A stretch of 24,000 nucleotides of DNA from Oscillatoriales cyanobacterium PMM_0008 (GTDB lineage Bacteria > Cyanobacteriota > Cyanobacteriia > Cyanobacteriales > Aerosakkonemataceae). Of this stretch, positions 1,586 to 24,000 are shown piece by piece. The notes below the pieces were generated by a model that saw only the letters and a program-made list of their open reading frames with translations, ran no database searches and was not told the DNA's origin. A program made the position numbers and the translations under genes. Position 1 is the stretch's first letter. Each line of letters begins with the position of its first letter. Where the stretch lies: the NCBI GenBank assembly GCA_949128025.1, contig CASBRD010000259.1, forward strand, positions 5,175-29,174. Direction: 5' to 3'.

Positions 1586-4500
1586 TTAGATCGACAAACT
1601 TAACTGAGATCCATCTTGAGTTTTGACAACTTCGATCCGCGCTTGAAACGCCTCTTTGAAGGATGGCATATGGGTGACGGTGAGGATGCAGGCAAAATCT
1701 GAAGCGATCGCATTTATCGCCGCAATCAAGCGATCGCATCCCTCCCGATCCTGAGTGCCAAACCCCTCATCCACAATCAGCATTTGCAGCGCAGTCCCCG
1801 CACGCTGAGCCAACAGACGCGCCAAAGCGAGACGAATGGCAAAATTAATCCGAAAAGCTTCCCCACCAGAATAAGTCTCGTAAGGGCGAGTACCGCGAGC
1901 ATCAGCGATCAAAATGTCCAAAGTGTCAATCAGTTTACCCGTTTTCTTAGAAGTCCGACCGCTGCGCCCAGCTTTTTGGGTGACAAACTGAACGTGCAAC
2001 TGGTTACCGCTCAACCGCGCCAAAATCGAATTAGTTTCGGCTTCCAACTGGGGCAACACATTCTCAATCATCAGCGTCTGGATACCGTGTTTGCCAAAAG
2101 CTTTACTCAGTTCTTCGTAAATGCGATATTTCTGGCGGCATTCGATCAGTTGTTGCTGCTGCTTGTCGTACTGAGCCTGAAGGTTTTCGAGCTGAGTGGA
2201 GAGTTGTTGCAGACGCCCCAAACTTGCCAGTTGCTCATCCAGTTGGCGGCGTCGATCGAATATCTGCCCTTCCAGGATTTGAATTTCCCCCGTCGCATCT
2301 GGCATAGTGCCAAGCTGATTGACAATTTGCTCAATTTGTGATGACTGAGCTTCTCGATCGCGCGATCGCACTTCCCAAACCTGAGCTAACTCCTGAAAAC
2401 GCTGACAAAGTAAAGGATATTGCTGCTGAGCCTGACACAATTCCTGATAGCGGAGTTGCCAAGATTGGGCTTGGCGGACAGACTTGCGGATCGCATTATG
2501 TCCATCCAAGTTATAAGAAATCTCAACAATTTGGCGATCGAGCGTCGCAATCTGCCTAGCAAATTCCGAATTTGTTTGCAGTTGCTCGATCTGGCGTTGA
2601 ATACCGATAATTTGAGCTAAAATCTCTGGCTGTCGAGCCGACACCTGAGCTTGACGCTGCTGAGCCTGTTTAATTCTATCCTGCTTAACCTCTGCCCAAC
2701 GGCACCGCTCTACCTCATTTCGAGCCAAAGCGTGGTTTTTATCATCGTAGTTGAGTTGTTGCAAGTTTTGGTCTAGCTGCCTCAATTCTTGCTGCACATC
2801 AACAGCGTAGTCACTTGTTTGGAGCGATCGCTCAATCTGTGCTGCTTCAGCTACTATTTGTTGAAGACGATCTTGGGCATCGCCAGTCGCCGCAAGTTGC
2901 GCCTGCAATTGTCCTCGATGTTCCCGCAAACCATCATAGCCAACCAATTCCTGGGATAATTGCTTATATTCAGCCCTTAAAACCTGAAGTTCCGCCTCAG
3001 ATGCAGCCAATTGCTCCCGAACAATCCAAAACTGCTGCTCCATCTCCTTTTGCTCGGTTTGGGTTTTGTTTACCACACGCTTCCAGTGGTGTTCGTCGAG
3101 GGGCCGATCGCACAACGGACAGATAGCATCCGGCGTCCGCAGCATCTGAATTTTGTGCGTCAATTCTCCCAACTGTCTTTCGTATTCCCGTTGATTTTCC
3201 TGGAGACGATCGACAAAACTGCGCCTTTCCAGCCCTTTTTCCTGCACGCGCTGTTGGCGAACCCGTTTTTTCTCCAATTGCTCAATTTGGACAGCAACTT
3301 CCATCACCGCCTGCTGTAACTTTGGCTGACGTTTTTGTTGCACTTGCAGTTGCGATACAGAAGAGTGGAGTTCATCTAACCTCGCACTCAATCGAGCTTG
3401 AGAGCGTTCCAGTTGGCTCTGTAACTGCTGGCGACCTTGCAGTAAAGGGGTGACCTGCAAGTGCAACCTATCCATCTGAATCAGGCGACTGCGAGCCTGC
3501 TGCAATTGTGCCAGCCCAGCTTCTACTTCAGCAGATTGACTGAGGGTTTGCTGAATTTCTTTTTCCTGTTGCGCTAAAGCTTCTAGTTGAGCTTGAGCGT
3601 GTTGCAGTTGTTTATTCAGTTCGTTGATAGCTCGTTCTTGCTGTTGTTGTAACTGTCGCCGTTGTTCCTGTGCAGCTTGATGGGTTTGAAATTTGCTGGT
3701 AAGGGTTTCTTCCTGGGCTTGCAAATGTTGGAAATTGGTATATCCAGCGGTTATTTCATCTTGCTGTTGCAGAAGGACTTCCAGTTGTTGCTGCTGCTGT
3801 TGGATAATGGCTGAGTCTTGCTGGAGACGATCGCAATCTTGTACCAAATTTTGATATTGTTGCCGATGCCAACTTAGCTGTTGTTCCCAAGTTTGTCGCT
3901 GATGGTGTAAGGATTGCAGCTGTTGTAGCCGTTCGGTATCTTCTAATTGTGCTTGTCGAAGCAGAGTCAGGTTGCGATCTTGAGTAGCTTGTTCTTGCGC
4001 GATCGATCCTCGCTCCTGCAACTGCACTTTCATAGAACCCAAATTCCGATCTAACTCATCCGCCTGTCCCTTCAACTGCTTAGAAAAATCCTTCGCTTGT
4101 TCCGCCAGAGTTTCGTACTGATTGAGTTTGAGTAAATCGGCGAGAATTTCTTTACGTTCCCCCGGTTTTTTGAGCATAAACTCATCCGCCCTACCCTGAC
4201 GCAGATAAGCCGAATTGATAAAAGTTTCGTAATCCAGCTTCAAGTGATCTACAATCAACTGCTGAGTCGATCGCATTCCCCGCTCAGTCAAAGCCCGAAA
4301 ACCACTAGGCGTCTGCACCTGAAATTCTAGAACCCCCCCACCGCCAAGACGACGGGCCCGAATTACACGGTAGATTACATCTTGGTTCTTGAACATGAAA
4401 TCAACTTGGACTTCATCAGATCCCGCGTGGATAACATCATCTTCATTACCAGCACGACTTTCACCCCAAAGCACCCAGGTAATCGCTTCTAGCAGGGAAG

Positions 4501-4612
4501 ATTTACCCGCGCCATTGGCACCGCAGATACAAGCCGTATGCAGTCCACGAAAATCGAGGGTTGCTTTGCGATAGCTAAGGAAGTTTTTGAGGGTAAGTTG
4601 CAGAGGAATCAT
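1586..4612 (-). CDS. sbcC: SbcC/Rad50-family DNA repair ATPase (exonuclease SbcCD subunit C)
   Basis: The N-terminus has a Walker A motif (CGANGAGKSSLLEAI). A very long Gln/Leu-rich coiled coil follows, with a central CPLC zinc hook (DAICPLCDRPL). The C-terminus has the ABC signature YSGGEAF, Walker B LIVDEGFG and an H-loop VTH. Length is 1008 aa. Confidence 0.92.
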   Translation of the reverse strand: MIPLQLTLKNFLSYRKATLDFRGLHTACICGANGAGKSSLLEAITWVLWGESRAGNEDDVIHAGSDEVQVDFMFKNQDVIYRVIRARRLGGGGVLEFQVQTPSGFRALTERGMRSTQQLIVDHLKLDYETFINSAYLRQGRADEFMLKKPGERKEILADLLKLNQYETLAEQAKDFSKQLKGQADELDRNLGSMKVQLQERGSIAQEQATQDRNLTLLRQAQLEDTERLQQLQSLHHQRQTWEQQLSWHRQQYQNLVQDCDRLQQDSAIIQQQQQQLEVLLQQQDEITAGYTNFQHLQAQEETLTSKFQTHQAAQEQRRQLQQQQERAINELNKQLQHAQAQLEALAQQEKEIQQTLSQSAEVEAGLAQLQQARSRLIQMDRLHLQVTPLLQGRQQLQSQLERSQARLSARLDELHSSVSQLQVQQKRQPKLQQAVMEVAVQIEQLEKKRVRQQRVQEKGLERRSFVDRLQENQREYERQLGELTHKIQMLRTPDAICPLCDRPLDEHHWKRVVNKTQTEQKEMEQQFWIVREQLAASEAELQVLRAEYKQLSQELVGYDGLREHRGQLQAQLAATGDAQDRLQQIVAEAAQIERSLQTSDYAVDVQQELRQLDQNLQQLNYDDKNHALARNEVERCRWAEVKQDRIKQAQQRQAQVSARQPEILAQIIGIQRQIEQLQTNSEFARQIATLDRQIVEISYNLDGHNAIRKSVRQAQSWQLRYQELCQAQQQYPLLCQRFQELAQVWEVRSRDREAQSSQIEQIVNQLGTMPDATGEIQILEGQIFDRRRQLDEQLASLGRLQQLSTQLENLQAQYDKQQQQLIECRQKYRIYEELSKAFGKHGIQTLMIENVLPQLEAETNSILARLSGNQLHVQFVTQKAGRSGRTSKKTGKLIDTLDILIADARGTRPYETYSGGEAFRINFAIRLALARLLAQRAGTALQMLIVDEGFGTQDREGCDRLIAAINAIASDFACILTVTHMPSFKEAFQARIEVVKTQDGSQLSLSI

Positions 4613-6122: not shown

Positions 6123-8477
6123 ATGGCAAAGCGATCGCTCCAAGTATCTCCAGAAGGTATAAAAGAGGCAAAAAAAGCCTTCACTCGCGCCGGATTGATC
6201 CAAACACAGCTTGGCGATCGAGTAGGTTGCACTCGCCAGACAATTGCCAAGTTTTTACATGGCAAATCGGTAGATAGCTACATTTTTAGAGAAATCTGCT
6301 TTCAGCTTGAGTTGGACTGGGAAAACATAGCTGCACCTGAGCCTGCTGAAAATAATCTTAGCCCTAGCACCGATATTGACGCCCTCGTGCAACACATCCG
6401 AGAGAAGCTACGCCCCACCATCCAACAGAGGTGTAGCACAATACGAGTGCTAGATATGACTCAACCCATCGGTTTAACCGACATCTACACCAATGTCAAC
6501 ATTCTAGAGCAAATTACTGGGCGCAGGCCGCTGACAATTGCTGAGCTGATGCAAGTATTCGATCCAGATTCGGGAAATTTCGATCGCTTTGGACTGAGCA
6601 GAATTACCAGAAAACGAGTACCAGGGCTAGAAGCTGTAAAATTTTACCCTAAGCTGATGGTATTGGGCAAGCCCGGATCGGGTAAGACAACATTTTTAAA
6701 GTATTTAGCAATTCAGTGCTGTTATGGTGATTTTCTCAACCATTTAGTGCCAATTTTTATCACGCTCAGAGACTTCGCAGAGGCAAAAAATCATAGCGTT
6801 AACATCGAATTAATTGACCAGATGTTGTTGAATTCTGGCATTACAGATATTCAACTAACTGAGTTGCTCAAACACGGCAAAACATTAATATTACTTGATG
6901 GTTTGGATGAAGTCAGAGAAGAAGATGCCAGTCGAGTTATCAAGCAGATTCAGGAATTTTCCGATCGTTACCAAAGCAATCGATTTGTTATCACCTGCCG
7001 CATAGCAGCGCAGGAATATACTTTTGAAAAATTCACCGAGGTAGAAGTTGCCGATTTTAATCACTACCAAATTAAGGCATTTGCAACCAAGTGGTTTCAG
7101 GTCAAAGAAAATCGATCTTCAATTATTTTACCTGCTGAGGAAGAGATTCAGGCTAATACAGCCGATCGATTCATGCAGCAACTGCAATCAAATCCTTCAA
7201 TTAGAGAACTGGCGACAAATCCTTTGCTGTTGACCCTGCTGTGTTTAGAATTTGAAGATGCCGGTGATTTCCCAGCCGATCGCGCCGAATTATACAAACG
7301 AGGCATTACTACTCTACTGAGAAAATGGGATGCCAAACGCGGTATTGAGCGCGATCGAGTTTATAAAAAGCTGTCGGTACAGCGCAAGGAAGATTTACTC
7401 AGTCAAATTGCCTTAACTACTTTTGAGCGCAAAGATTACTTTTTTAAACAACAGGCTGCTGAATCTTATATTGGAAATTTTATTCGCAATTTATCCGATG
7501 CCAAAACTGACTCGGAAATTCTGCACTTAGATAGCTCGGCGTTGTTGAAATCGCTTGAAGCACAGCATGGAATCTTAATAGAAAGAGCGAGGGGTATTTA
7601 TTCTTTTTCTCATCTAACATTTCACGAGTATTTTACAGCCAGGAAAATTGTCAACAGTTCCGAACCGCAAGCGTTAGAAAAAGCTTTACAAAATTTGGTC
7701 AGCCATATTACGGATAAATACTGGCGAGAAGTATTTTTATTAGCAGTAGGGATGTTGCAGCCTGCTGATTATCTGTTGCAATTAATGAAAAAGCAGGTTG
7801 ATGTGCTTGTAGCTAGTGATGAAAGTTTGCAACAATTTTTGATGTGGGTAAGAGATAAATCGCTTTCTGTCAAGGTTCCTTATAAGCCTGCTGCTGTGAG
7901 GGCTTTTTACTTTAATCTTGCCTACGATCGCCACCCTCAGCGCGATTCAGTTGGTTACCGCGATCCAGAATTGATCCGCACCCTCGATCGTCGCCTTTTT
8001 ACTCTAGTTATTTTAGGCAATATCCGCGCCCTTGATGTCGGTCTTGATGATATCCTTGCTCTGGTTTGCGATCGCACTTTTAAGCTCGATCTGAATAATT
8101 ATCCCTATGCTTCCACTTATGCTTTTAAAGGGGCTTTTTTCCTGGCGTGCGATCGCGCCCTTTACCTCGAACCTAAGTTAGGACAAGCTTTGCAAGAACT
8201 CAAAAACCAACTTCCCGATCCCGATGCTGATAAGTGGAAATTTAAACAATGGTGGGAAGCTAATAGTCAAGCTTGGATAGAGCAATTAATATCAGCAATA
8301 ATTAAGTATCGCAATATAGGTCACAATTGGCAGTTCAGCAAACAGCAAAAAAAGTTGCTTCAAGCTTATTACAATGCCAATAAGTTACTGGTGGAGTGCC
8401 TGAATACCGATTGTTACGTGAGCCGTGAAGTGCGGCAGGAAATAGAGGATACGTTGTTATTACCATCAGAGAAGTAA
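6123..8477 (+). CDS. HTH (XRE-like) - NACHT STAND NTPase with a long helical C-terminal region
   Basis: The N-terminus has an HTH-like segment (TQLGDRVGCTRQTIAKFLHGK). Walker A is GKPGSGKTT (aa 182-190, nt ~6666-6692) and Walker B is LILLDGLDEV (aa ~255-264), with ITCR shortly after. The ~400-aa C-terminal region ends ...NKLLVECLNTDCYVSREVRQEIEDTLLLP, a tail I recall from cyanobacterial NACHT proteins. Confidence 0.85.
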   Translation: MAKRSLQVSPEGIKEAKKAFTRAGLIQTQLGDRVGCTRQTIAKFLHGKSVDSYIFREICFQLELDWENIAAPEPAENNLSPSTDIDALVQHIREKLRPTIQQRCSTIRVLDMTQPIGLTDIYTNVNILEQITGRRPLTIAELMQVFDPDSGNFDRFGLSRITRKRVPGLEAVKFYPKLMVLGKPGSGKTTFLKYLAIQCCYGDFLNHLVPIFITLRDFAEAKNHSVNIELIDQMLLNSGITDIQLTELLKHGKTLILLDGLDEVREEDASRVIKQIQEFSDRYQSNRFVITCRIAAQEYTFEKFTEVEVADFNHYQIKAFATKWFQVKENRSSIILPAEEEIQANTADRFMQQLQSNPSIRELATNPLLLTLLCLEFEDAGDFPADRAELYKRGITTLLRKWDAKRGIERDRVYKKLSVQRKEDLLSQIALTTFERKDYFFKQQAAESYIGNFIRNLSDAKTDSEILHLDSSALLKSLEAQHGILIERARGIYSFSHLTFHEYFTARKIVNSSEPQALEKALQNLVSHITDKYWREVFLLAVGMLQPADYLLQLMKKQVDVLVASDESLQQFLMWVRDKSLSVKVPYKPAAVRAFYFNLAYDRHPQRDSVGYRDPELIRTLDRRLFTLVILGNIRALDVGLDDILALVCDRTFKLDLNNYPYASTYAFKGAFFLACDRALYLEPKLGQALQELKNQLPDPDADKWKFKQWWEANSQAWIEQLISAIIKYRNIGHNWQFSKQQKKLLQAYYNANKLLVECLNTDCYVSREVRQEIEDTLLLPSEK

Positions 8478-8492
8478 CGGCTCTTTCGGAGT

Positions 8493-8574
8493 TGTTATGC
8501 TTTTGTTCATATAAGAACATTTTTATTTCTTTTCTCCTGGAGCCCCTCTGCCATAGCATAGTAAGCACGGAAGA
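8493..8574 (+). repeat. dispersed intergenic repeat, copy 1
   Basis: Block TTGTTATGCTTTTGTTCA is identical in both copies (18 nt), and ..AACATTTTTAT follows. A pyrimidine-rich variable spacer comes next, then AGCATAGTAAGCA(C/A)GGAAGA, which matches 23898-23988 at 19/20. A TATGCT/AGCATA complement brackets the element. Confidence 0.7.
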
Positions 8575-9009
8575 TCCGCATTACCGTAAGGCCGAGTGCG
8601 GATTGGCGTACTTGACGGAAGGCGAATGCCTACGGCAACCTACGCGATCGCAAATCTGACTATAGTAAGGAACTAATTCAGCAAACCTGCGTCCTTAGTA
8701 TATAGCTAAAAAGTTTTCGCCAGTACAACAAAAAACAATCGACAAATAGTTCTATTGCTTCCGGTTGATGAATAAGCCTTTGACCTCTCCTTAGAATTAA
8801 GAGTAATGAAAATTGGAGTAAAAAGCTCGCCGCACACTTAGGCCAAGCTCCAGCATCACACAACTATTTACACCAAAGTGATGACTCGAAATAACAGACG
8901 CTCTTTAGAGAGTCGCTCAAATCAACCAAACTCAACCTGCACTATCAGAAACAAACTTTTCAACACGGCGTCATTCGATATAACAAACCCAACAAGGAGG
9001 GTGCCATAA

Positions 9010-11429: not shown

Positions 11430-12812
11430 CTATTGACTTTCTGGTAACCACACGATAAAAGTAGCCCCCACGCCAGCATTAGTAGGGTGCTGAGATGGAC
11501 TGAAAACCTCAATTTCACCCTGCATTTGCCGCACCAAATCTCGTGCGATCGCCAAACCCAAACCAGTACCAGGAATCTCCGATTGGGCCTGAACTCCCCG
11601 GTAATGCCGCTCAAACAGCCGCTCTAAATCTTGGGGAGGAATGCCAGGGCCAGTGTCACTCACCGCAACTCCCTGCAACCGACCTTGAGGCGATTCTCGC
11701 TCTACCCCTGCCTCAACGTAAACCCATCCTCCCGAAGGCGTATATTTCAAAGCATTATCGATTAAATTGCTGAACACTTCTCTTAAAGCCTTGGCATTAG
11801 CTCGAACAGGCGTCAAATTAGCCCTAATTTCAGCTTTTAACTTTATATTTCGCTCTTGGGCGATCGCATACGCCGATGACAGCAGCGGTTCTAAAACTTC
11901 GGCTACAGAGCAGGATTGCAGAGTCTCGACCGCCATCAACCCACCTTCGGGTAACAACAGTAGCGGTTTATTGGCCCGATCGGGCTCAGTCGCAGTCTCA
12001 ACCTTCCCTTCAACCGACACCTGAGAAGGATAAGCTAACAGCGATCCCCCTTGGCTGGCGGTCAAGTCAATCGCCTCATCAAACTGTGAGAGCAAATCTT
12101 GGATGCGATCGCTCTCCCTGAGAATATTACCTGCAATATCGCGGTTTGCATCGGACGGTCGCAGTCGCCTCAGCAGCAGCTTCCCAAAAGTCAGTAAAGC
12201 CGTCAGCGGATTGCGAAGCTGGTGCAACAAATTATGTAGAAGGTCATTTTGCTGACTCTGGAGACGCTGTTGTTGGCTAAATTGCTGCCCCAGCCATTGG
12301 GAGCGTTGGTCTAAAATACAAGCTAGAGCCATCGTATGGGCAATCCTTTCCACCTCAATCCGTTCCTGCTCATTCCAAGGTCGATCCTCACGACTGGTAA
12401 CCAACAATCCCATCACAACCCCCTCGTGGATCAGAGGTAAAACAATTTGGCGCTGTTGCACCAGAGAATGGCCTTCCCTGTGACGCCGTTGCTCCCCTCC
12501 CGTTGCATCTACCGGGGCCCCAGACCGCAGCAGGATTGAGGAGCCTTGAGGAGCCGCTGATAATAAGCGGGGGATATTATTGACCTTCTCGATCCCATGC
12601 GGTAAAAAAGCCAGCGAGTCATTCTCATCCCAAACCGCAGTTTGGTTAGGGTAAGCCACAACCGGAATCAGTTTAGCTTCTTCTGGCTCCACCAATTCTT
12701 CCGTCAAATAGACTACGCTCAAAGCCGCTCCCAGTGCCTGGGTAAGCAATGCGACCTGTGCTTGACACAGAGCAACAAATTCTGAACTGGCAGGCATCAA
12801 CATTCTTGTCAA
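11430..12812 (-). CDS. GAF-domain sensor histidine kinase (possibly the Hik2/CSK-type kinase)
   Basis: The N-terminal region is GAF-like. The H-box is LHQLRNPLTALLTFGKLL. HATPase_c motifs are present (NLIDNALKYTP, SDTGPGIPP, GTGLGLAIARDLV). The track start at 12812 is TTG; ATG alternatives at 12803 and 12797 are equally plausible. Confidence 0.85.
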   Translation of the reverse strand: MTRMLMPASSEFVALCQAQVALLTQALGAALSVVYLTEELVEPEEAKLIPVVAYPNQTAVWDENDSLAFLPHGIEKVNNIPRLLSAAPQGSSILLRSGAPVDATGGEQRRHREGHSLVQQRQIVLPLIHEGVVMGLLVTSREDRPWNEQERIEVERIAHTMALACILDQRSQWLGQQFSQQQRLQSQQNDLLHNLLHQLRNPLTALLTFGKLLLRRLRPSDANRDIAGNILRESDRIQDLLSQFDEAIDLTASQGGSLLAYPSQVSVEGKVETATEPDRANKPLLLLPEGGLMAVETLQSCSVAEVLEPLLSSAYAIAQERNIKLKAEIRANLTPVRANAKALREVFSNLIDNALKYTPSGGWVYVEAGVERESPQGRLQGVAVSDTGPGIPPQDLERLFERHYRGVQAQSEIPGTGLGLAIARDLVRQMQGEIEVFSPSQHPTNAGVGATFIVWLPESQ

Positions 12813-12940
12813 GCTCTAGTAGTTAACCGTGCCAAATGGCGGTGTTGCCCAAATGGCTTTCTGTTTCTCTGATATCATCTCTCTTCCTCCTAAAGACCCC
12901 CACTATCAGCGCGGCGGATATATCGAGCCTTTGGGCGAGT

Positions 12941-14556
12941 ACCGCCAATGCTTTAGTGGCGGTCGGAAACGGGGGATATTTTATGGGGTTCAATACCCCT
13001 AAAATATCCAAATCACTGTGCATAACTATATCCATCCTTTTTGTGAATGTGTTTGCAGTATTTGTGGCCGATCCCTTGAATCAGTCCGTCCGTTGTTGAG
13101 ATATTGAAACTACCCGTGGCGCGAGTTGCGACCCGTCCAACGTAAGTTCCAATCTTTTTCCCAGAGTTGACAATCGCTTTAACAATGTCACCCGTTTGAA
13201 AACCCTTGTGAAACTTGGCTCTAGAGCAATAACGACTCGGAAAACCCCATTTGTCAGTACGGCACTGCTGACGGGTTCCATGACCCTTGGCAGCAATCAG
13301 CAGGGGCTTAACCCCAGTCGTGATTAACTGTTCTGGGGTGGACGCTCCTACGCAGGCTGCATCCCAATAGTGAGTTTTTTCTAAGCCTCGGATTGTCCGG
13401 TTGTACTTGGTGCGACCGCCTGTGCCAACCTCGACAAGTAAGCCGGTTTTTTTGAGGTTTTCGTACAGATTCCATCGGGTTGCATTGACGGCTGCCGTAT
13501 CTGCCAAGGGTCTTTTAGCTTGAGCCAAAATCCGTTTGAGCAGGTCAGGCTGAAGAGAGAGAAAGTCTTTGATGTCCTGATTGCCCTTCTTCTGATTACA
13601 GGGAACGCAGGCTAAACAAAGGTTACTGACGCGGTTAGACCCCCCAATTGAAGTTGGCTGGATGTGTTCAATCTCAAGCTTGGTGTCTTTTGCACCGCAG
13701 TAAGCACAGGTCCTGTTCCACTTCGAGAGCAGAAATTCTCGTACTTCGTAACCAGCCAGAGTCCCCTGCTGGTAACCTACCCCGCTAATCTCAGAATCCT
13801 CCATCTGTTGCGTGTCAAACCGCACCAATTCTTGAGAAATGGCAGTAATCTGACACAGTGACGACAAGCGCTTGACAATCGTCAGGATGTTAGCCACTCG
13901 ACTATTTAATGATGGTGGCAACCATCCTTGTGGTCGGGTGCGATTGAGAAAACGCGGCTGACGGTAGCGGGTTTTACGGTTGCGTCGTGACCGTCGCAGT
14001 TGTCGGCGAGAGGTTAAGGCGTCCCGAATTTGGAAACCTCGGTGCTGTAACTCGGCTGCCCAAACAATTTCACCTGTGCTGTCGTTGACCAAGGCTAATC
14101 CAGTTGTTTTTGCACCAGGGTCAATCTTGATGCGGAGCGGCTCTAATGAAGGATTCAACACCTCCTCTTTCAAAACAATAGTGAAAGGATAGCGACGAAA
14201 AACAGCAGCTTTCCCTTGAGTTAAAAGCATCCTAGCTCTACCCGGATGAACGGGGTTAAGGGGCTGTTTGTTGGGATCTAGAACAAACACTTTGGACATT
14301 ACTGTCCCTCCTTGCGGGTAATGTTAGCCTGGACAATGATTTAAGGGCTTTTTACGCTAACAGCACTGACTCAAACCCGATGATTCTGCTTAACTGTTAG
14401 CCTCAGAGCTACAGACTGGCTTCGTATCCGTAGGTGAGATGACCTAAAAATCGTAGTACCGAAGTACTTAGTCGGGTAAACTCTGGGCGATTATCGCCCC
14501 CGCCATAGCTGTAATCAGCTTGGCGGCGGGTAATTTACCTACAAGCGTTATCTGAC
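12941..14556 (-). mobile_element. IS200/IS605-superfamily-derived IscB element (non-autonomous; no tnpA); boundaries approximate
   Basis: The element contains iscB and its upstream omegaRNA region. The left boundary is inferred from where homology with the second omegaRNA copy stops (~14540-14556). The right side is inferred from two hairpins (12941-12963, 12974-13009) directly after the iscB stop. No Y1 transposase ORF is present. Confidence 0.5.
13013..14299 (-). CDS. iscB: IscB: OMEGA RNA-guided endonuclease (PLMP-RuvC-bridge helix-HNH-RuvC), Cas9 ancestor family
   Basis: The 428-aa protein has these parts: (1) a PLMP-type N-terminus MSKVFVLDPNKQPLNPVHPGRARMLL; (2) RuvC-I IKIDPGAKTTGLAL (D60); (3) an Arg-rich helix RRQLRRSRRNRKTRYRQPRFLNRTR; (4) RuvC-II ISQELVRFD (E157); (5) HNH CAYCG...LEIEHIQP...NLCLACVPCNQKKGN (C198/C201/H212/C231/C234/N235); (6) RuvC-III KTHYWDAACV (H310, D313); (7) a ~100-aa C-terminal domain. 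Confidence 0.85.
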   Translation of the reverse strand: MSKVFVLDPNKQPLNPVHPGRARMLLTQGKAAVFRRYPFTIVLKEEVLNPSLEPLRIKIDPGAKTTGLALVNDSTGEIVWAAELQHRGFQIRDALTSRRQLRRSRRNRKTRYRQPRFLNRTRPQGWLPPSLNSRVANILTIVKRLSSLCQITAISQELVRFDTQQMEDSEISGVGYQQGTLAGYEVREFLLSKWNRTCAYCGAKDTKLEIEHIQPTSIGGSNRVSNLCLACVPCNQKKGNQDIKDFLSLQPDLLKRILAQAKRPLADTAAVNATRWNLYENLKKTGLLVEVGTGGRTKYNRTIRGLEKTHYWDAACVGASTPEQLITTGVKPLLIAAKGHGTRQQCRTDKWGFPSRYCSRAKFHKGFQTGDIVKAIVNSGKKIGTYVGRVATRATGSFNISTTDGLIQGIGHKYCKHIHKKDGYSYAQ

Positions 14557-14570
14557 CAGTTGGGGGCGAT
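14300..14570 (-). ncRNA. IscB-associated omegaRNA (scaffold ~14300-14553 plus 5' guide region; 5' end uncertain)
   Basis: This is a non-coding leader directly 5' of iscB on the same strand. It has a UUCG-capped hairpin (14456-14467), a GGGCG/CGCCC hairpin (14485-14499), and a long-range complement GGUAAA (14534-14539) with UUUACC (14475-14480). A 30-nt core (14405-14434) matches 17197-17226 at 28/30. The fold elements are conserved by compensatory change in the second copy. Confidence 0.7.
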
Positions 14571-14784
14571 GAATTAGAGACAACATATATTTTTATTACA
14601 GCTACTTCGATCGATATCTGTTTCCAGCTTAGCGCGATCGGTATCTGGGCTTTGCTTTCAGGGCATCTGAAAGATTTGTATCAATCATTTAATAAAAGTT
14701 GATTTTTAGAACTCAAGCCGATATACTTGCGACGGCTTTGGTAAATATCATTACAAAATAGTACTAAAAGAGGAGGTAACTAGC

Positions 14785-15198: not shown

Positions 15199-15242
15199 AA
15201 TAAACCCCACTCAAAACTTGTTTGGTTTGAGTGGGGTTTATT
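15199..15242. terminator. bidirectional rho-independent terminator between convergent genes
   Basis: A perfect 17-bp stem (AATAAACCCCACTCAAA / TTTGAGTGGGGTTTATT) with a 10-nt loop is flanked by A/T runs on both sides. Confidence 0.85.
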
Positions 15243-16367: not shown

Positions 16368-16918
16368 AACCGGCTGAACACTCTGTCCCAAACTGATTTA
16401 AAAGGCATCGGCTCTCGTTTGCCAGTTCCAACCGCACGCTCGAAGAGGCTTTTCAGGGGTGACGCCCGATGGCAGACCGATCGGCAGTATCGCTATGAGC
16501 GTGAATGGCGATGCAGTCCAATTCTGTCCGAAGAGGAACTGCTGAATATTACGATCAATTCTAGACAGTTAATTCTGGGTATGCCTGCCAGACTTCGTGG
16601 GTGATTTTGCCTCCCTCGTCGAAGTGTGCTTTATACAAAAGATAAAAGACCTTAACCAGCCCTTCGTCTAGACCAGGCTCGTAGCGTGATTTCAGCTTTA
16701 ATGGTGCTTCCCCTGCGGCTGGGAATCTTTCCTAAACTATAGGGTTTTTCAACCACTTGGATCTGTTGAATTTTATTTTCTTTAAAGAATTGGTGCCAAA
16801 CCCGGTAAATCTCCTCATCCTGGTGGACTTCATCTTTCTTCCTCCTTGGAGACTCCCGCCAAAACTGTACTCAGTTTGGCGGTGAGAGTCAAAGGAGGGC
16901 CGGGTAAAAGTTGCATAA

Positions 16919-17101
16919 CTATTCCTTTGGTCGGTGAGGAAACCGTTGCGCCTCAAAAGTGGTGAAACTTCTTGGCATACCTGCTGGCATTACAGGATTG
17001 AGGCTACCGATATTGTTCTGTGATTGACCCGCCGCTCCTAAGAGGAGCCGCTTCGCTAACGGTGGGGCGTTTAATTTGTTGGGGATTGCTCCCCCTCCCA
17101 T
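16919..17101 (-). pseudogene. decayed IscB N-terminal remnant (about 60 codons)
   Basis: The ATG at 17101 sits in the same AGTAATG context as the intact iscB start. The translation MGGGAIPNKLNAPPLAKRLLLGAAGQ.. is colinear with ..LDPNKQPLNPVHPGRARMLLTQGKAA.. of IscB. Similarity is then lost and a stop follows. No RuvC or HNH motifs lie downstream. Confidence 0.55.
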
Positions 17102-17372
17102 TACTGGGGTGATGTTCGCCTTGACAATGTTAGTGGTCGGTACTTTCTTTCGTAGCACTGGCTTAACCCTTTAGACCTGTTTAACTACTTGGTTCTAGAG
17201 CTACAGACTGGCGTCGCATCCGTAGGTAGGAACTTGAACTCTTGCCACTAACGTAGGTATTGCTACCTGAGTCTGGTAAACTAGGGCTTTTAAAAGCCCC
17301 CGCTATATCGGTACTCTGATCCTTCGGTGGGTTGTTTACCCACAGAGCCGCTATTCCACAGCATAATGGCAT
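17102..17372 (-). ncRNA. second omegaRNA-like scaffold without an intact IscB (solo or relic omegaRNA)
   Basis: It is colinear with 14300-14570. The 30-nt core 17197-17226 matches at 28/30. The position-equivalent hairpins have different sequences: a GCAA-capped stem at 17256-17267 against the UUCG-capped stem in copy A, and GGGCU../..AGCCC at 17284-17299 against GGGCG/CGCCC. The long-range pair GGUAAAC (17334-17340) with GUUUACC (17275-17281) is retained. Confidence 0.6.
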
Positions 17373-23860: not shown

Positions 23861-23897
23861 AAATAAGCTGCTATACTATCTTTGGGTTTTTCAGAAT

Positions 23898-23988
23898 TGT
23901 TATGCTTTTGTTCAATAAATAACATTTTTATGCCTCTGCTCCTCTGCTCCTCTGCCCCTCGGCTCCTCTAGCATAGTAAGCAAGGAAG
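23898..23988 (+). repeat. dispersed intergenic repeat, copy 2 (with CT-rich octamer tract)
   Basis: It has the same two conserved blocks as 8493-8574. They are separated by a (C)CTCTGCT-like tract repeated about four times (23932-23968). AGCATAGT recurs at 23993-24000, so the 3' block may repeat in tandem beyond the window edge. Confidence 0.7.
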
Positions 23989-24000
23989 AGCCAGCATAGT

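Follow-up and report, generated by a model that had tools for sequence, protein, structure and literature searches.

An intact iscB gene and its omegaRNA within a probable non-autonomous IS200/IS605-superfamily element of an Oscillatoriales cyanobacterium

HEARO RNAs were first described together with the open reading frames (ORFs) that accompany them (Rfam RF02033), and the family was later shown to be the omegaRNA of the small RNA-guided nuclease IscB, from which Cas9 descends. Cyanobacterial ISC transposons have 5'-GT... termini and insert at N|ATGA, as verified with empty sites (Kapitonov et al. 2016, PMC4810608). In iscB elements the HEARO side is the transposon right end (RE), and the target-adjacent motif (TAM) of GstIscB, which lies beside the left end (LE), is TTCAT (Meers et al., bioRxiv 10.1101/2023.03.14.532601). 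The OgeuIscB protein has catalytic residues D61, E193, H340 and D343 in RuvC and H247 in HNH, a PLMP motif at residues 14-17, and a C-terminal TAM-interacting domain that is a five-stranded beta-barrel (PMC9640706). Here we describe an iscB gene, its omegaRNA and the insertion sequence (IS) that appears to carry them, on a 24,000-nucleotide stretch of Oscillatoriales cyanobacterium PMM_0008 (contig CASBRD010000259.1, positions 5,175 to 29,174), which we call the window and in whose numbering all positions are given.

The 428-aa product of the central ORF is, by sequence, an IscB with all catalytic positions intact, and it is preceded by a full-length HEARO RNA. The two lie on the bottom strand of what is very probably a non-autonomous IS of the IS200/IS605 superfamily, ISC group, maintained by the homing mechanism set out below; that grade is meant for element and mechanism together. 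The element occupies 12879-14538 (1660 bp), with its top strand the + strand of the window, and the parts of the locus are as follows.

12874-12878, + strand: TAM or target motif ATCAT, immediately outside the left end; on the iscB strand it is ATGAT and follows the predicted protospacer on its 3' side (from the stop of homology and by analogy with the literature)
12879-13012, + strand: LE of the IS, 134 bp from the TAM to the iscB stop codon, with predicted imperfect subterminal hairpins (from a conserved downstream block)
13013-14299, - strand: iscB gene, intact, 428 aa (from the ORF call, profile matches, motifs and substitution rates)
14300-14538, - strand: omegaRNA scaffold, its first base the RE boundary of the IS and its 3' tail bearing the iscB Shine-Dalgarno sequence (from the Rfam match, compensatory pairs and the start of homology)
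14539-14554, - strand: putative 16-nt guide CAGATAACGCTTGTAG, flanking host DNA just beyond the RE (from the variable flank, with the length taken from OgeuIscB)

The iscB ORF starts at an ATG at 14299, with an AAGGAGG Shine-Dalgarno sequence 7 nt upstream. Its product matches the NCBIfam model NF040563 ('RNA-guided endonuclease IscB', guided_IscB) at 460.9 bits, which exceeds the cut-off of this curated IscB equivalog (175) 2.6-fold, and the alignment spans residues 4-318 and the whole profile (positions 1-314 of 314). The Pfam RRXRR model (PF14239) scores 248 bits against a cut-off of 25, three HNH models (PF01844, PF14279 and PF13395) match residues 198-241, and NCBI names proteins 84-90% identical to this one 'RNA-guided endonuclease IscB'. 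The expected motifs follow one another along the chain: PLNP at residues 13-16; RuvC-I as IKIDPG at 57-62, giving D60; then the Arg-rich bridge helix RRQLRRSRRNRKTRYR at 98-113; RuvC-II as SQELV at 155-159, giving E157; an HNH insert between RuvC-II and RuvC-III with CAYC at 198-201, EIEH with H212, CLAC/CVPC at 228-234 and N235; and RuvC-III as HYWD at 310-313, giving H310 and D313. P13 and P16 are invariant in 19 homologues, and so, down to 56% identity, are D60, E157, C198, C201, H212, N226, C231, C234, N235, H310 and D313.

By sequence, the closest solved relatives are IscB chains (TbaIscB, OgeuIscB with its engineered derivatives, and HfmIscB), with IsrB and small Cas9s next. A profile of the 19-member family aligns to TbaIscB, OgeuIscB/enIscB and HfmIscB with E = 1e-65 to 1e-43 through about residue 348; the IDPG, ELxRF, HNH His and HYxDA motifs fall in register with the solved chains, and residues 1-116 align with residues 1-115 of OgeuIscB-derived chains. 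D60, E157, H212, H310 and D313 are thus placed as the counterparts of OgeuIscB D61, E193, H247, H340 and D343. An earlier sequence-only reading of this DNA had called the protein an IscB with PLNP at 13-16, an Arg-rich bridge helix, an HNH insert at 198-235 and an intact catalytic set of D60, E157, H310 and D313, and had proposed a profile search as a check; the profile matches, the alignment with solved structures and the invariance among homologues bear out each of these points, with the Arg-rich stretch located at 98-113.

The gene is also under strong purifying selection. The ratio of nonsynonymous to synonymous substitution rates (dN/dS) is 0.045-0.078 against nine relatives, at dS > 1, and in a tenth pair dS is saturated. 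For residues 321-428 alone the ratio is 0.03-0.09, except for 0.20 against one relative (L031), where the alignment is shorter.

Between the iscB ATG and 14538, about 240 nt contain no ORF and are strongly structured. Rfam RF02033 (HEARO) matches 14318-14538 on the - strand at 131.5 bits, with a gathering score of 83 and E = 2e-27, and the match is full length and untruncated (model positions 1-211 of 211), its 3' end at 14318 standing close to the ATG at 14299 on the same strand. The UUCG-capped hairpin GUACUUCGGUAC and the long-range helix formed by GUAAAUUA and (A)GAGUUUAC both lie within this alignment. The hairpin-rich non-coding stretch, the UUCG tetraloop and the long-range pairing had been noticed before and taken for an omegaRNA, and the covariance model now places all three within that family. 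We aligned window positions 14300-14538 with a second HEARO RNA at 17095-17339, which belongs to the gene-less neighbouring element described below, and with 21 relatives. RNAalifold predicted 51 pairs from these 23 sequences, and compensatory double changes occur in 27 of the 51. By covariance-model match and pairing, the upstream RNA is the IscB omegaRNA (HEARO).

Two omegaRNA scaffold subtypes accompany IscB proteins that are 85-90% identical to one another. In one, the sequence begins GTAAAC and the linker is short. The other begins GTCAAC, carries 8 additional nt (AAGGCAAG) and differs in its second hairpin.

The edges of the element were defined by aligning the locus with 27 relatives (82-90% aa identity) that sit in unrelated flanks. 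Upstream, homology starts exactly at the first scaffold base, G14538 (GTAAAT here, GTAAAC or GTCAAC in relatives); the sequence immediately preceding the scaffold is unrelated in every one of the 27, and the scaffold itself is 75-98% conserved. Downstream, homology runs for about 135 nt beyond the iscB stop, to ...GAAGAGAG ATGA, after which the sequence is variable. Among the 27 relatives it ends at ...GAAAGATGA, again followed by variable sequence, which puts the boundary at about 12875-12879. Five diverged subfamilies differ in their terminal sequences and all end [AG]TGA, and ATGA(N) follows the element end in the window as well as in the gene-less neighbour and the relatives. The flanks carry no target duplication, and there are no inverted terminal repeats at the defined ends. 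The exact TAM/LE border at 12878/12879 is the position suggested by the alignment together with the literature, and the guide length of about 16 nt is presumed from OgeuIscB (PMC9640706).

These boundaries revise the sequence-only reading in two respects. It had given the feature as 13013-14570; the feature is larger, the element being 12879-14538 with its TAM at 12874-12878 and its guide at 14539-14554. It had also regarded the TAM as unknown, and the motif (ATCAT) can be read from the sequence. That reading had mentioned neither the transposon context nor, at a distance of 2.3 kb, the gene-less element with its own omegaRNA.

Directly after the iscB stop and inside the LE, at about 12969-13009, is a near-perfect palindrome of 43 nt, GGATATTTTAGGGGTATTGAACCCCATAAAATATCC. 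It is present in only about one third of close relatives, which suggests a small insertion or an optional hairpin. An ORF of 66-70 aa at 12823-13035 (- strand), called in listed public contigs, overlaps the iscB stop and spans LE, TAM and host flank; it has no Pfam match and its frame is broken by indels in relatives, and we consider it probably spurious.

Scanning one genome per species yielded 142 relatives. The closest 27 come from Coleofasciculus, Microcoleus, Laspinema, Lusitaniella, Aerosakkonema and allied metagenome-assembled genomes, and several of these genomes hold two or three copies at different sites, which shows past mobility. Neither the called genes of the 21-kb neighbourhood nor the remaining ORFs of the window include a PF01797 Y1 transposase (TnpA), and the element is therefore classed as non-autonomous, like most ISC elements. 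A nearby tnpA is likewise missing for about 98.5% of iscB genes (Meers et al., bioRxiv 10.1101/2023.03.14.532601).

A second full-length HEARO match, of 126.7 bits, lies at 17109-17339 on the same (-) strand, 2.3 kb from the IscB element. It belongs to a short element without a gene, whose parts are these.

16829-16833, + strand: TAM TTCAT of the gene-less element, the same sequence as the family consensus and the GstIscB TAM
16834-17339, - strand: gene-less PATE-like derivative, 506 bp (from the HEARO match and blastn of its ends)
17340-17355, - strand: putative guide AATAGCGGCTCTGTGG of the second omegaRNA, positioned by analogy with the first element

This element consists of the omegaRNA, 174 nt of unmatched sequence, the last iscB codons and the LE, and it ends at ...GGAGGAAGAAAGATGAA, which is the family left end plus TAM. 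In blastn against the relatives its omegaRNA is about 75% identical, the last iscB codons and LE are 80-84% identical, and the middle 174 nt give no match. No IscB remnant was found beside the second omegaRNA by tblastn, and blastn found only the last codons and the LE. Published gene-less PATE-like elements often carry omegaRNAs that depend on a nuclease supplied in trans.

Two further features of the second RNA were seen. It combines the opening helix of the GTAAAC subtype with the body of the GTCAAC subtype. The two putative guides (14539-14554 and 17340-17355) are alike when two gaps are allowed, with ATA.CG.CT.TGT.G in common; this resemblance is probably due to chance, no bias of this kind being seen in the flanks of the other 27 copies.

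The published homing model is the best-supported reading of the locus. The omegaRNA would be transcribed from beyond the RE, so that its first approximately 16 nt copy the flanking host DNA CAGATAACGCTTGTAG, and IscB would bind the scaffold through its PLMP, RuvC and bridge-helix surfaces. The loaded nuclease would then seek guide-matching sequences followed by ATGA(N), the target strand being cut by HNH (H212) and the other strand by RuvC (D60, E157, H310, D313). A TnpA acting in trans would excise the top strand of the element and reseal the flanks, leaving the donor joint 5'-CAGATAACGCTTGTAG|ATGAT-3', which would be the sole place where guide match and motif become adjacent. Guide-loaded IscB would recognise this joint beside ATGA and cut both strands, and recombination with an occupied copy of the chromosome would restore the element. 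What has been observed is which protein and RNA these are, that both are intact, where the element begins and ends, its target motif, the lack of tnpA in the window and the purifying selection; that the guide is transcribed and about 16 nt long, that the nuclease is active and serves homing, and that the genome encodes a TnpA elsewhere are what we infer, and the overall reading is, in our judgement, very likely to be correct.

Several observations weigh against it. The motif beside this copy is ATCAT, which differs from the consensus TTCAT at its outermost base. The neighbourhood does not differ among the 21 public contigs read that encode exactly this protein, six of which are listed, and two exact-match scans of the metagenome collection for the joined flanks of either element (guide end, 0-12 nt, far flank) found no empty site, a search that divergent empty sites would escape. 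The TAM/LE border therefore rests on alignment and literature, and a single neighbourhood in all contigs together with no empty site means that nothing points to recent movement within this species. Even the closest relatives share only about 90% identity, and dS to them is saturated. On the - strand of 14539-14784 no sigma-70-like promoter was found, in a scan that overall gave no more sites than shuffled sequence and is uninformative; the gene upstream of the guide (DUF3155) is divergent, so that read-through from it cannot supply the guide.

The C-terminal part of the protein adds two more such points. The sequence-only reading had set apart a C-terminal domain of about 100 aa, and this region (residues of about 349-428, or 80-100 aa) is indeed conserved, in 23 homologues. 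A profile of the C-terminal 80 aa searched against the sequences of the PDB, however, matched no solved IscB TAM-interacting domain; its best matches were S1/OB-like barrels at E of about 0.7, which is chance level. An AlphaFold2 model of IscB, built from a shallow alignment (29 sequences, 83-90% identity), had a mean predicted local distance difference test score (pLDDT) of 35, too low to be of use. TAM-interacting domains are known to have no sequence similarity even where the fold is common (PMC9640706).

The same observations can be read as the signature of a stranded relic, an intact-looking copy that is immobile and idle, with no compatible TnpA in the genome, an untranscribed guide and an ORF that has not yet degraded. 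The single occupied site in every contig, the failure of the junction scans to find an empty one, the lack of tnpA in the window, the lack of a promoter-like site upstream of the guide and the divergent upstream gene all agree with such a state, and the deleted gene-less sister element nearby indicates that decay occurs here. Against this, the ORF is full length, its catalytic and zinc-binding residues are all present despite a dS above 1 to the nearest relatives, the omegaRNA keeps its full-length structure and the Shine-Dalgarno sequence is intact. The promoter scan covered one promoter type only and found no more sites than in shuffled sequence, and dN/dS between lineages is silent on when constraint acted. 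We regard a relic as possible, though unlikely.

Much less probable is that the host has domesticated the system and uses IscB with one or both omegaRNAs beyond the upkeep of the transposon, for example in RNA-guided repression or defence with the second omegaRNA acting in trans. The position is fixed across samples, purifying selection is strong, another full-length omegaRNA whose guide differs is located 2.3 kb away, and published gene-less PATE-like elements often carry omegaRNAs that need use in trans. However, both nuclease sites are intact, unlike the expectation for a repressor; both guides are the DNA adjoining the ends of their own elements, as the homing model predicts; and the same element family occupies unrelated sites in other genera, with no orthologous fixed locus seen in any related genus. 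The more specific proposal, that the resident IscB works with its own guide and also with the guide of the 506-bp element, which has a different scaffold subtype, and that this fixed single-copy pair is retained by the host beyond homing, for example for RNA-guided control or defence, we likewise think very improbable. If true, a two-guide, host-retained pair would be a natural multi-guide, pre-CRISPR arrangement in a cyanobacterium.

The weakest alternative, a stand-alone HNH or McrA-type restriction endonuclease with an unrelated structured leader, draws on the HNH Pfam matches at residues 198-241 and on the name '5-methylcytosine-specific restriction endonuclease McrA' that JGI gives many 85-89% identical proteins, but we rejected it and grant it almost no credence, since HNH accounts for only 44 of the 428 residues, the remainder is RRXRR or split RuvC that aligns to solved IscB structures over residues 1-348, the NF040563 score is far above its cut-off, and the upstream RNA belongs to the IscB-specific HEARO family.

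Elsewhere, the left end and TAM of the IscB element lie about 60 nt upstream of the start of a co-directional GAF/HisKA histidine-kinase gene (11430-12812), so that read-through from iscB could affect the expression of that gene. Other features of the window are listed here.

1482-1553: tRNA-Thr(CGU)
1586-4612: SbcC/SMC-like ATPase, 1008 aa
4745-5089: PemK-family toxin with a small upstream partner
6123-8477: NACHT NTPase, 784 aa

Proteins like the SbcC/SMC-like ATPase, the PemK toxin and the NACHT NTPase often have ties to defence or addiction. Two intergenic copies of a segment of about 100 nt, 80-92% identical, lie 15.4 kb apart at 8479-8577 and 23884-23992. A palindrome at 15200-15241, in the gap that separates CCB1 from DUF3155, is possibly a bidirectional terminator; Rfam matches to mir-4524 at the same positions were judged spurious, being on both strands, well below threshold and explained by the symmetry of the palindrome. 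The cyanobacterial HIP1 octamer GCGATCGC occurs 27 times in the 24 kb, against 0.39 expected, and none of the 27 is inside either IS element; about two would be expected in the larger one, and this is only a weak hint of foreign composition.

The locus is a well-preserved, ordinary copy of a known cyanobacterial mobile element, and its protein and RNA are already recognised by databases. IscB-omegaRNA systems, the HEARO RNA, their transposon context and their homing role have all been published, which leaves little discovery value; a specialist would not be surprised by the locus, and it makes no open question testable. The remark of the sequence-only reading that the family is already described agrees with the HEARO entry, with the 2016 ISC paper (PMC4810608) and with the IscB names at NCBI. 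Its practical interest is that a compact IscB of 428 aa whose native guide can be read and whose TAM is likely ATGA(N) is a candidate for genome-editing screening panels, and its well-populated cyanobacterial clade offers natural scaffold variants. The gene-less neighbour is a natural example of a guide that requires use in trans.

Compared with Cas9, the protein shares the split RuvC with an HNH insert and the Arg-rich bridge helix, and Cas9d/Cas9 models match weakly over the HNH region. Unlike Cas9, it has no recognition (REC) lobe within its 428 aa, and it would use a single fixed guide derived from the flank rather than acquired spacers. A CRISPR-Cas9 identity was rejected: the window contains no regularly spaced repeat family that would form a CRISPR array, Cas9 models score far below their cut-offs, and there is no Cas gene family among the called neighbourhood genes.

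The element resembles the cyanobacterial ISC transposons with an N|ATGA target, such as ISC1-1_MA of Microcystis aeruginosa (PMC4810608). Like them it is non-autonomous, encodes only the Cas9-like protein and has a cyanobacterial host, and it also shares with them a 5' terminus of the form GT(A/C)A..., ATGA directly after the 3' terminus, subterminal hairpins and the absence of a target-site duplication. It differs from them in belonging to another sequence family, and its target motif comes from an alignment of many copies, whereas theirs came from empty sites. Kapitonov et al. 2016 (PMC4810608) precedes the discovery that the 5' region is the guide RNA.

As in the GstIscB element of Geobacillus stearothermophilus, the HEARO upstream of iscB is bounded by the RE and the guide lies outside the element; tnpA is absent from both, and gene-less PATE-like relatives exist. 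The GstIscB TAM, TTCAT, abuts the LE; here the family consensus is TTCAT, the gene-less neighbour has TTCAT and this copy has ATCAT. The host phylum differs, and activity, TnpA partnership and homing have been demonstrated for the Gst system, whereas the present one is known from its sequence.

Among solved systems the comparison is with OgeuIscB (7XHT, 7UTN, 8CSZ; PMC9640706). Here 428 aa stand against 496 aa, the two proteins can be aligned only to about residue 348 with C-terminal similarity undetectable, and the OgeuIscB TAM is NWRRNA (NNRR in PMC9640706) against the probable ATGA(N) of this element. The order of PLMP, RuvC-I, bridge helix, RuvC-II, HNH and RuvC-III is the same, the catalytic D, E, H, H and D align, and the RNA has the same plan of a 5' guide, presumed here, joined to a scaffold of about 200 nt.

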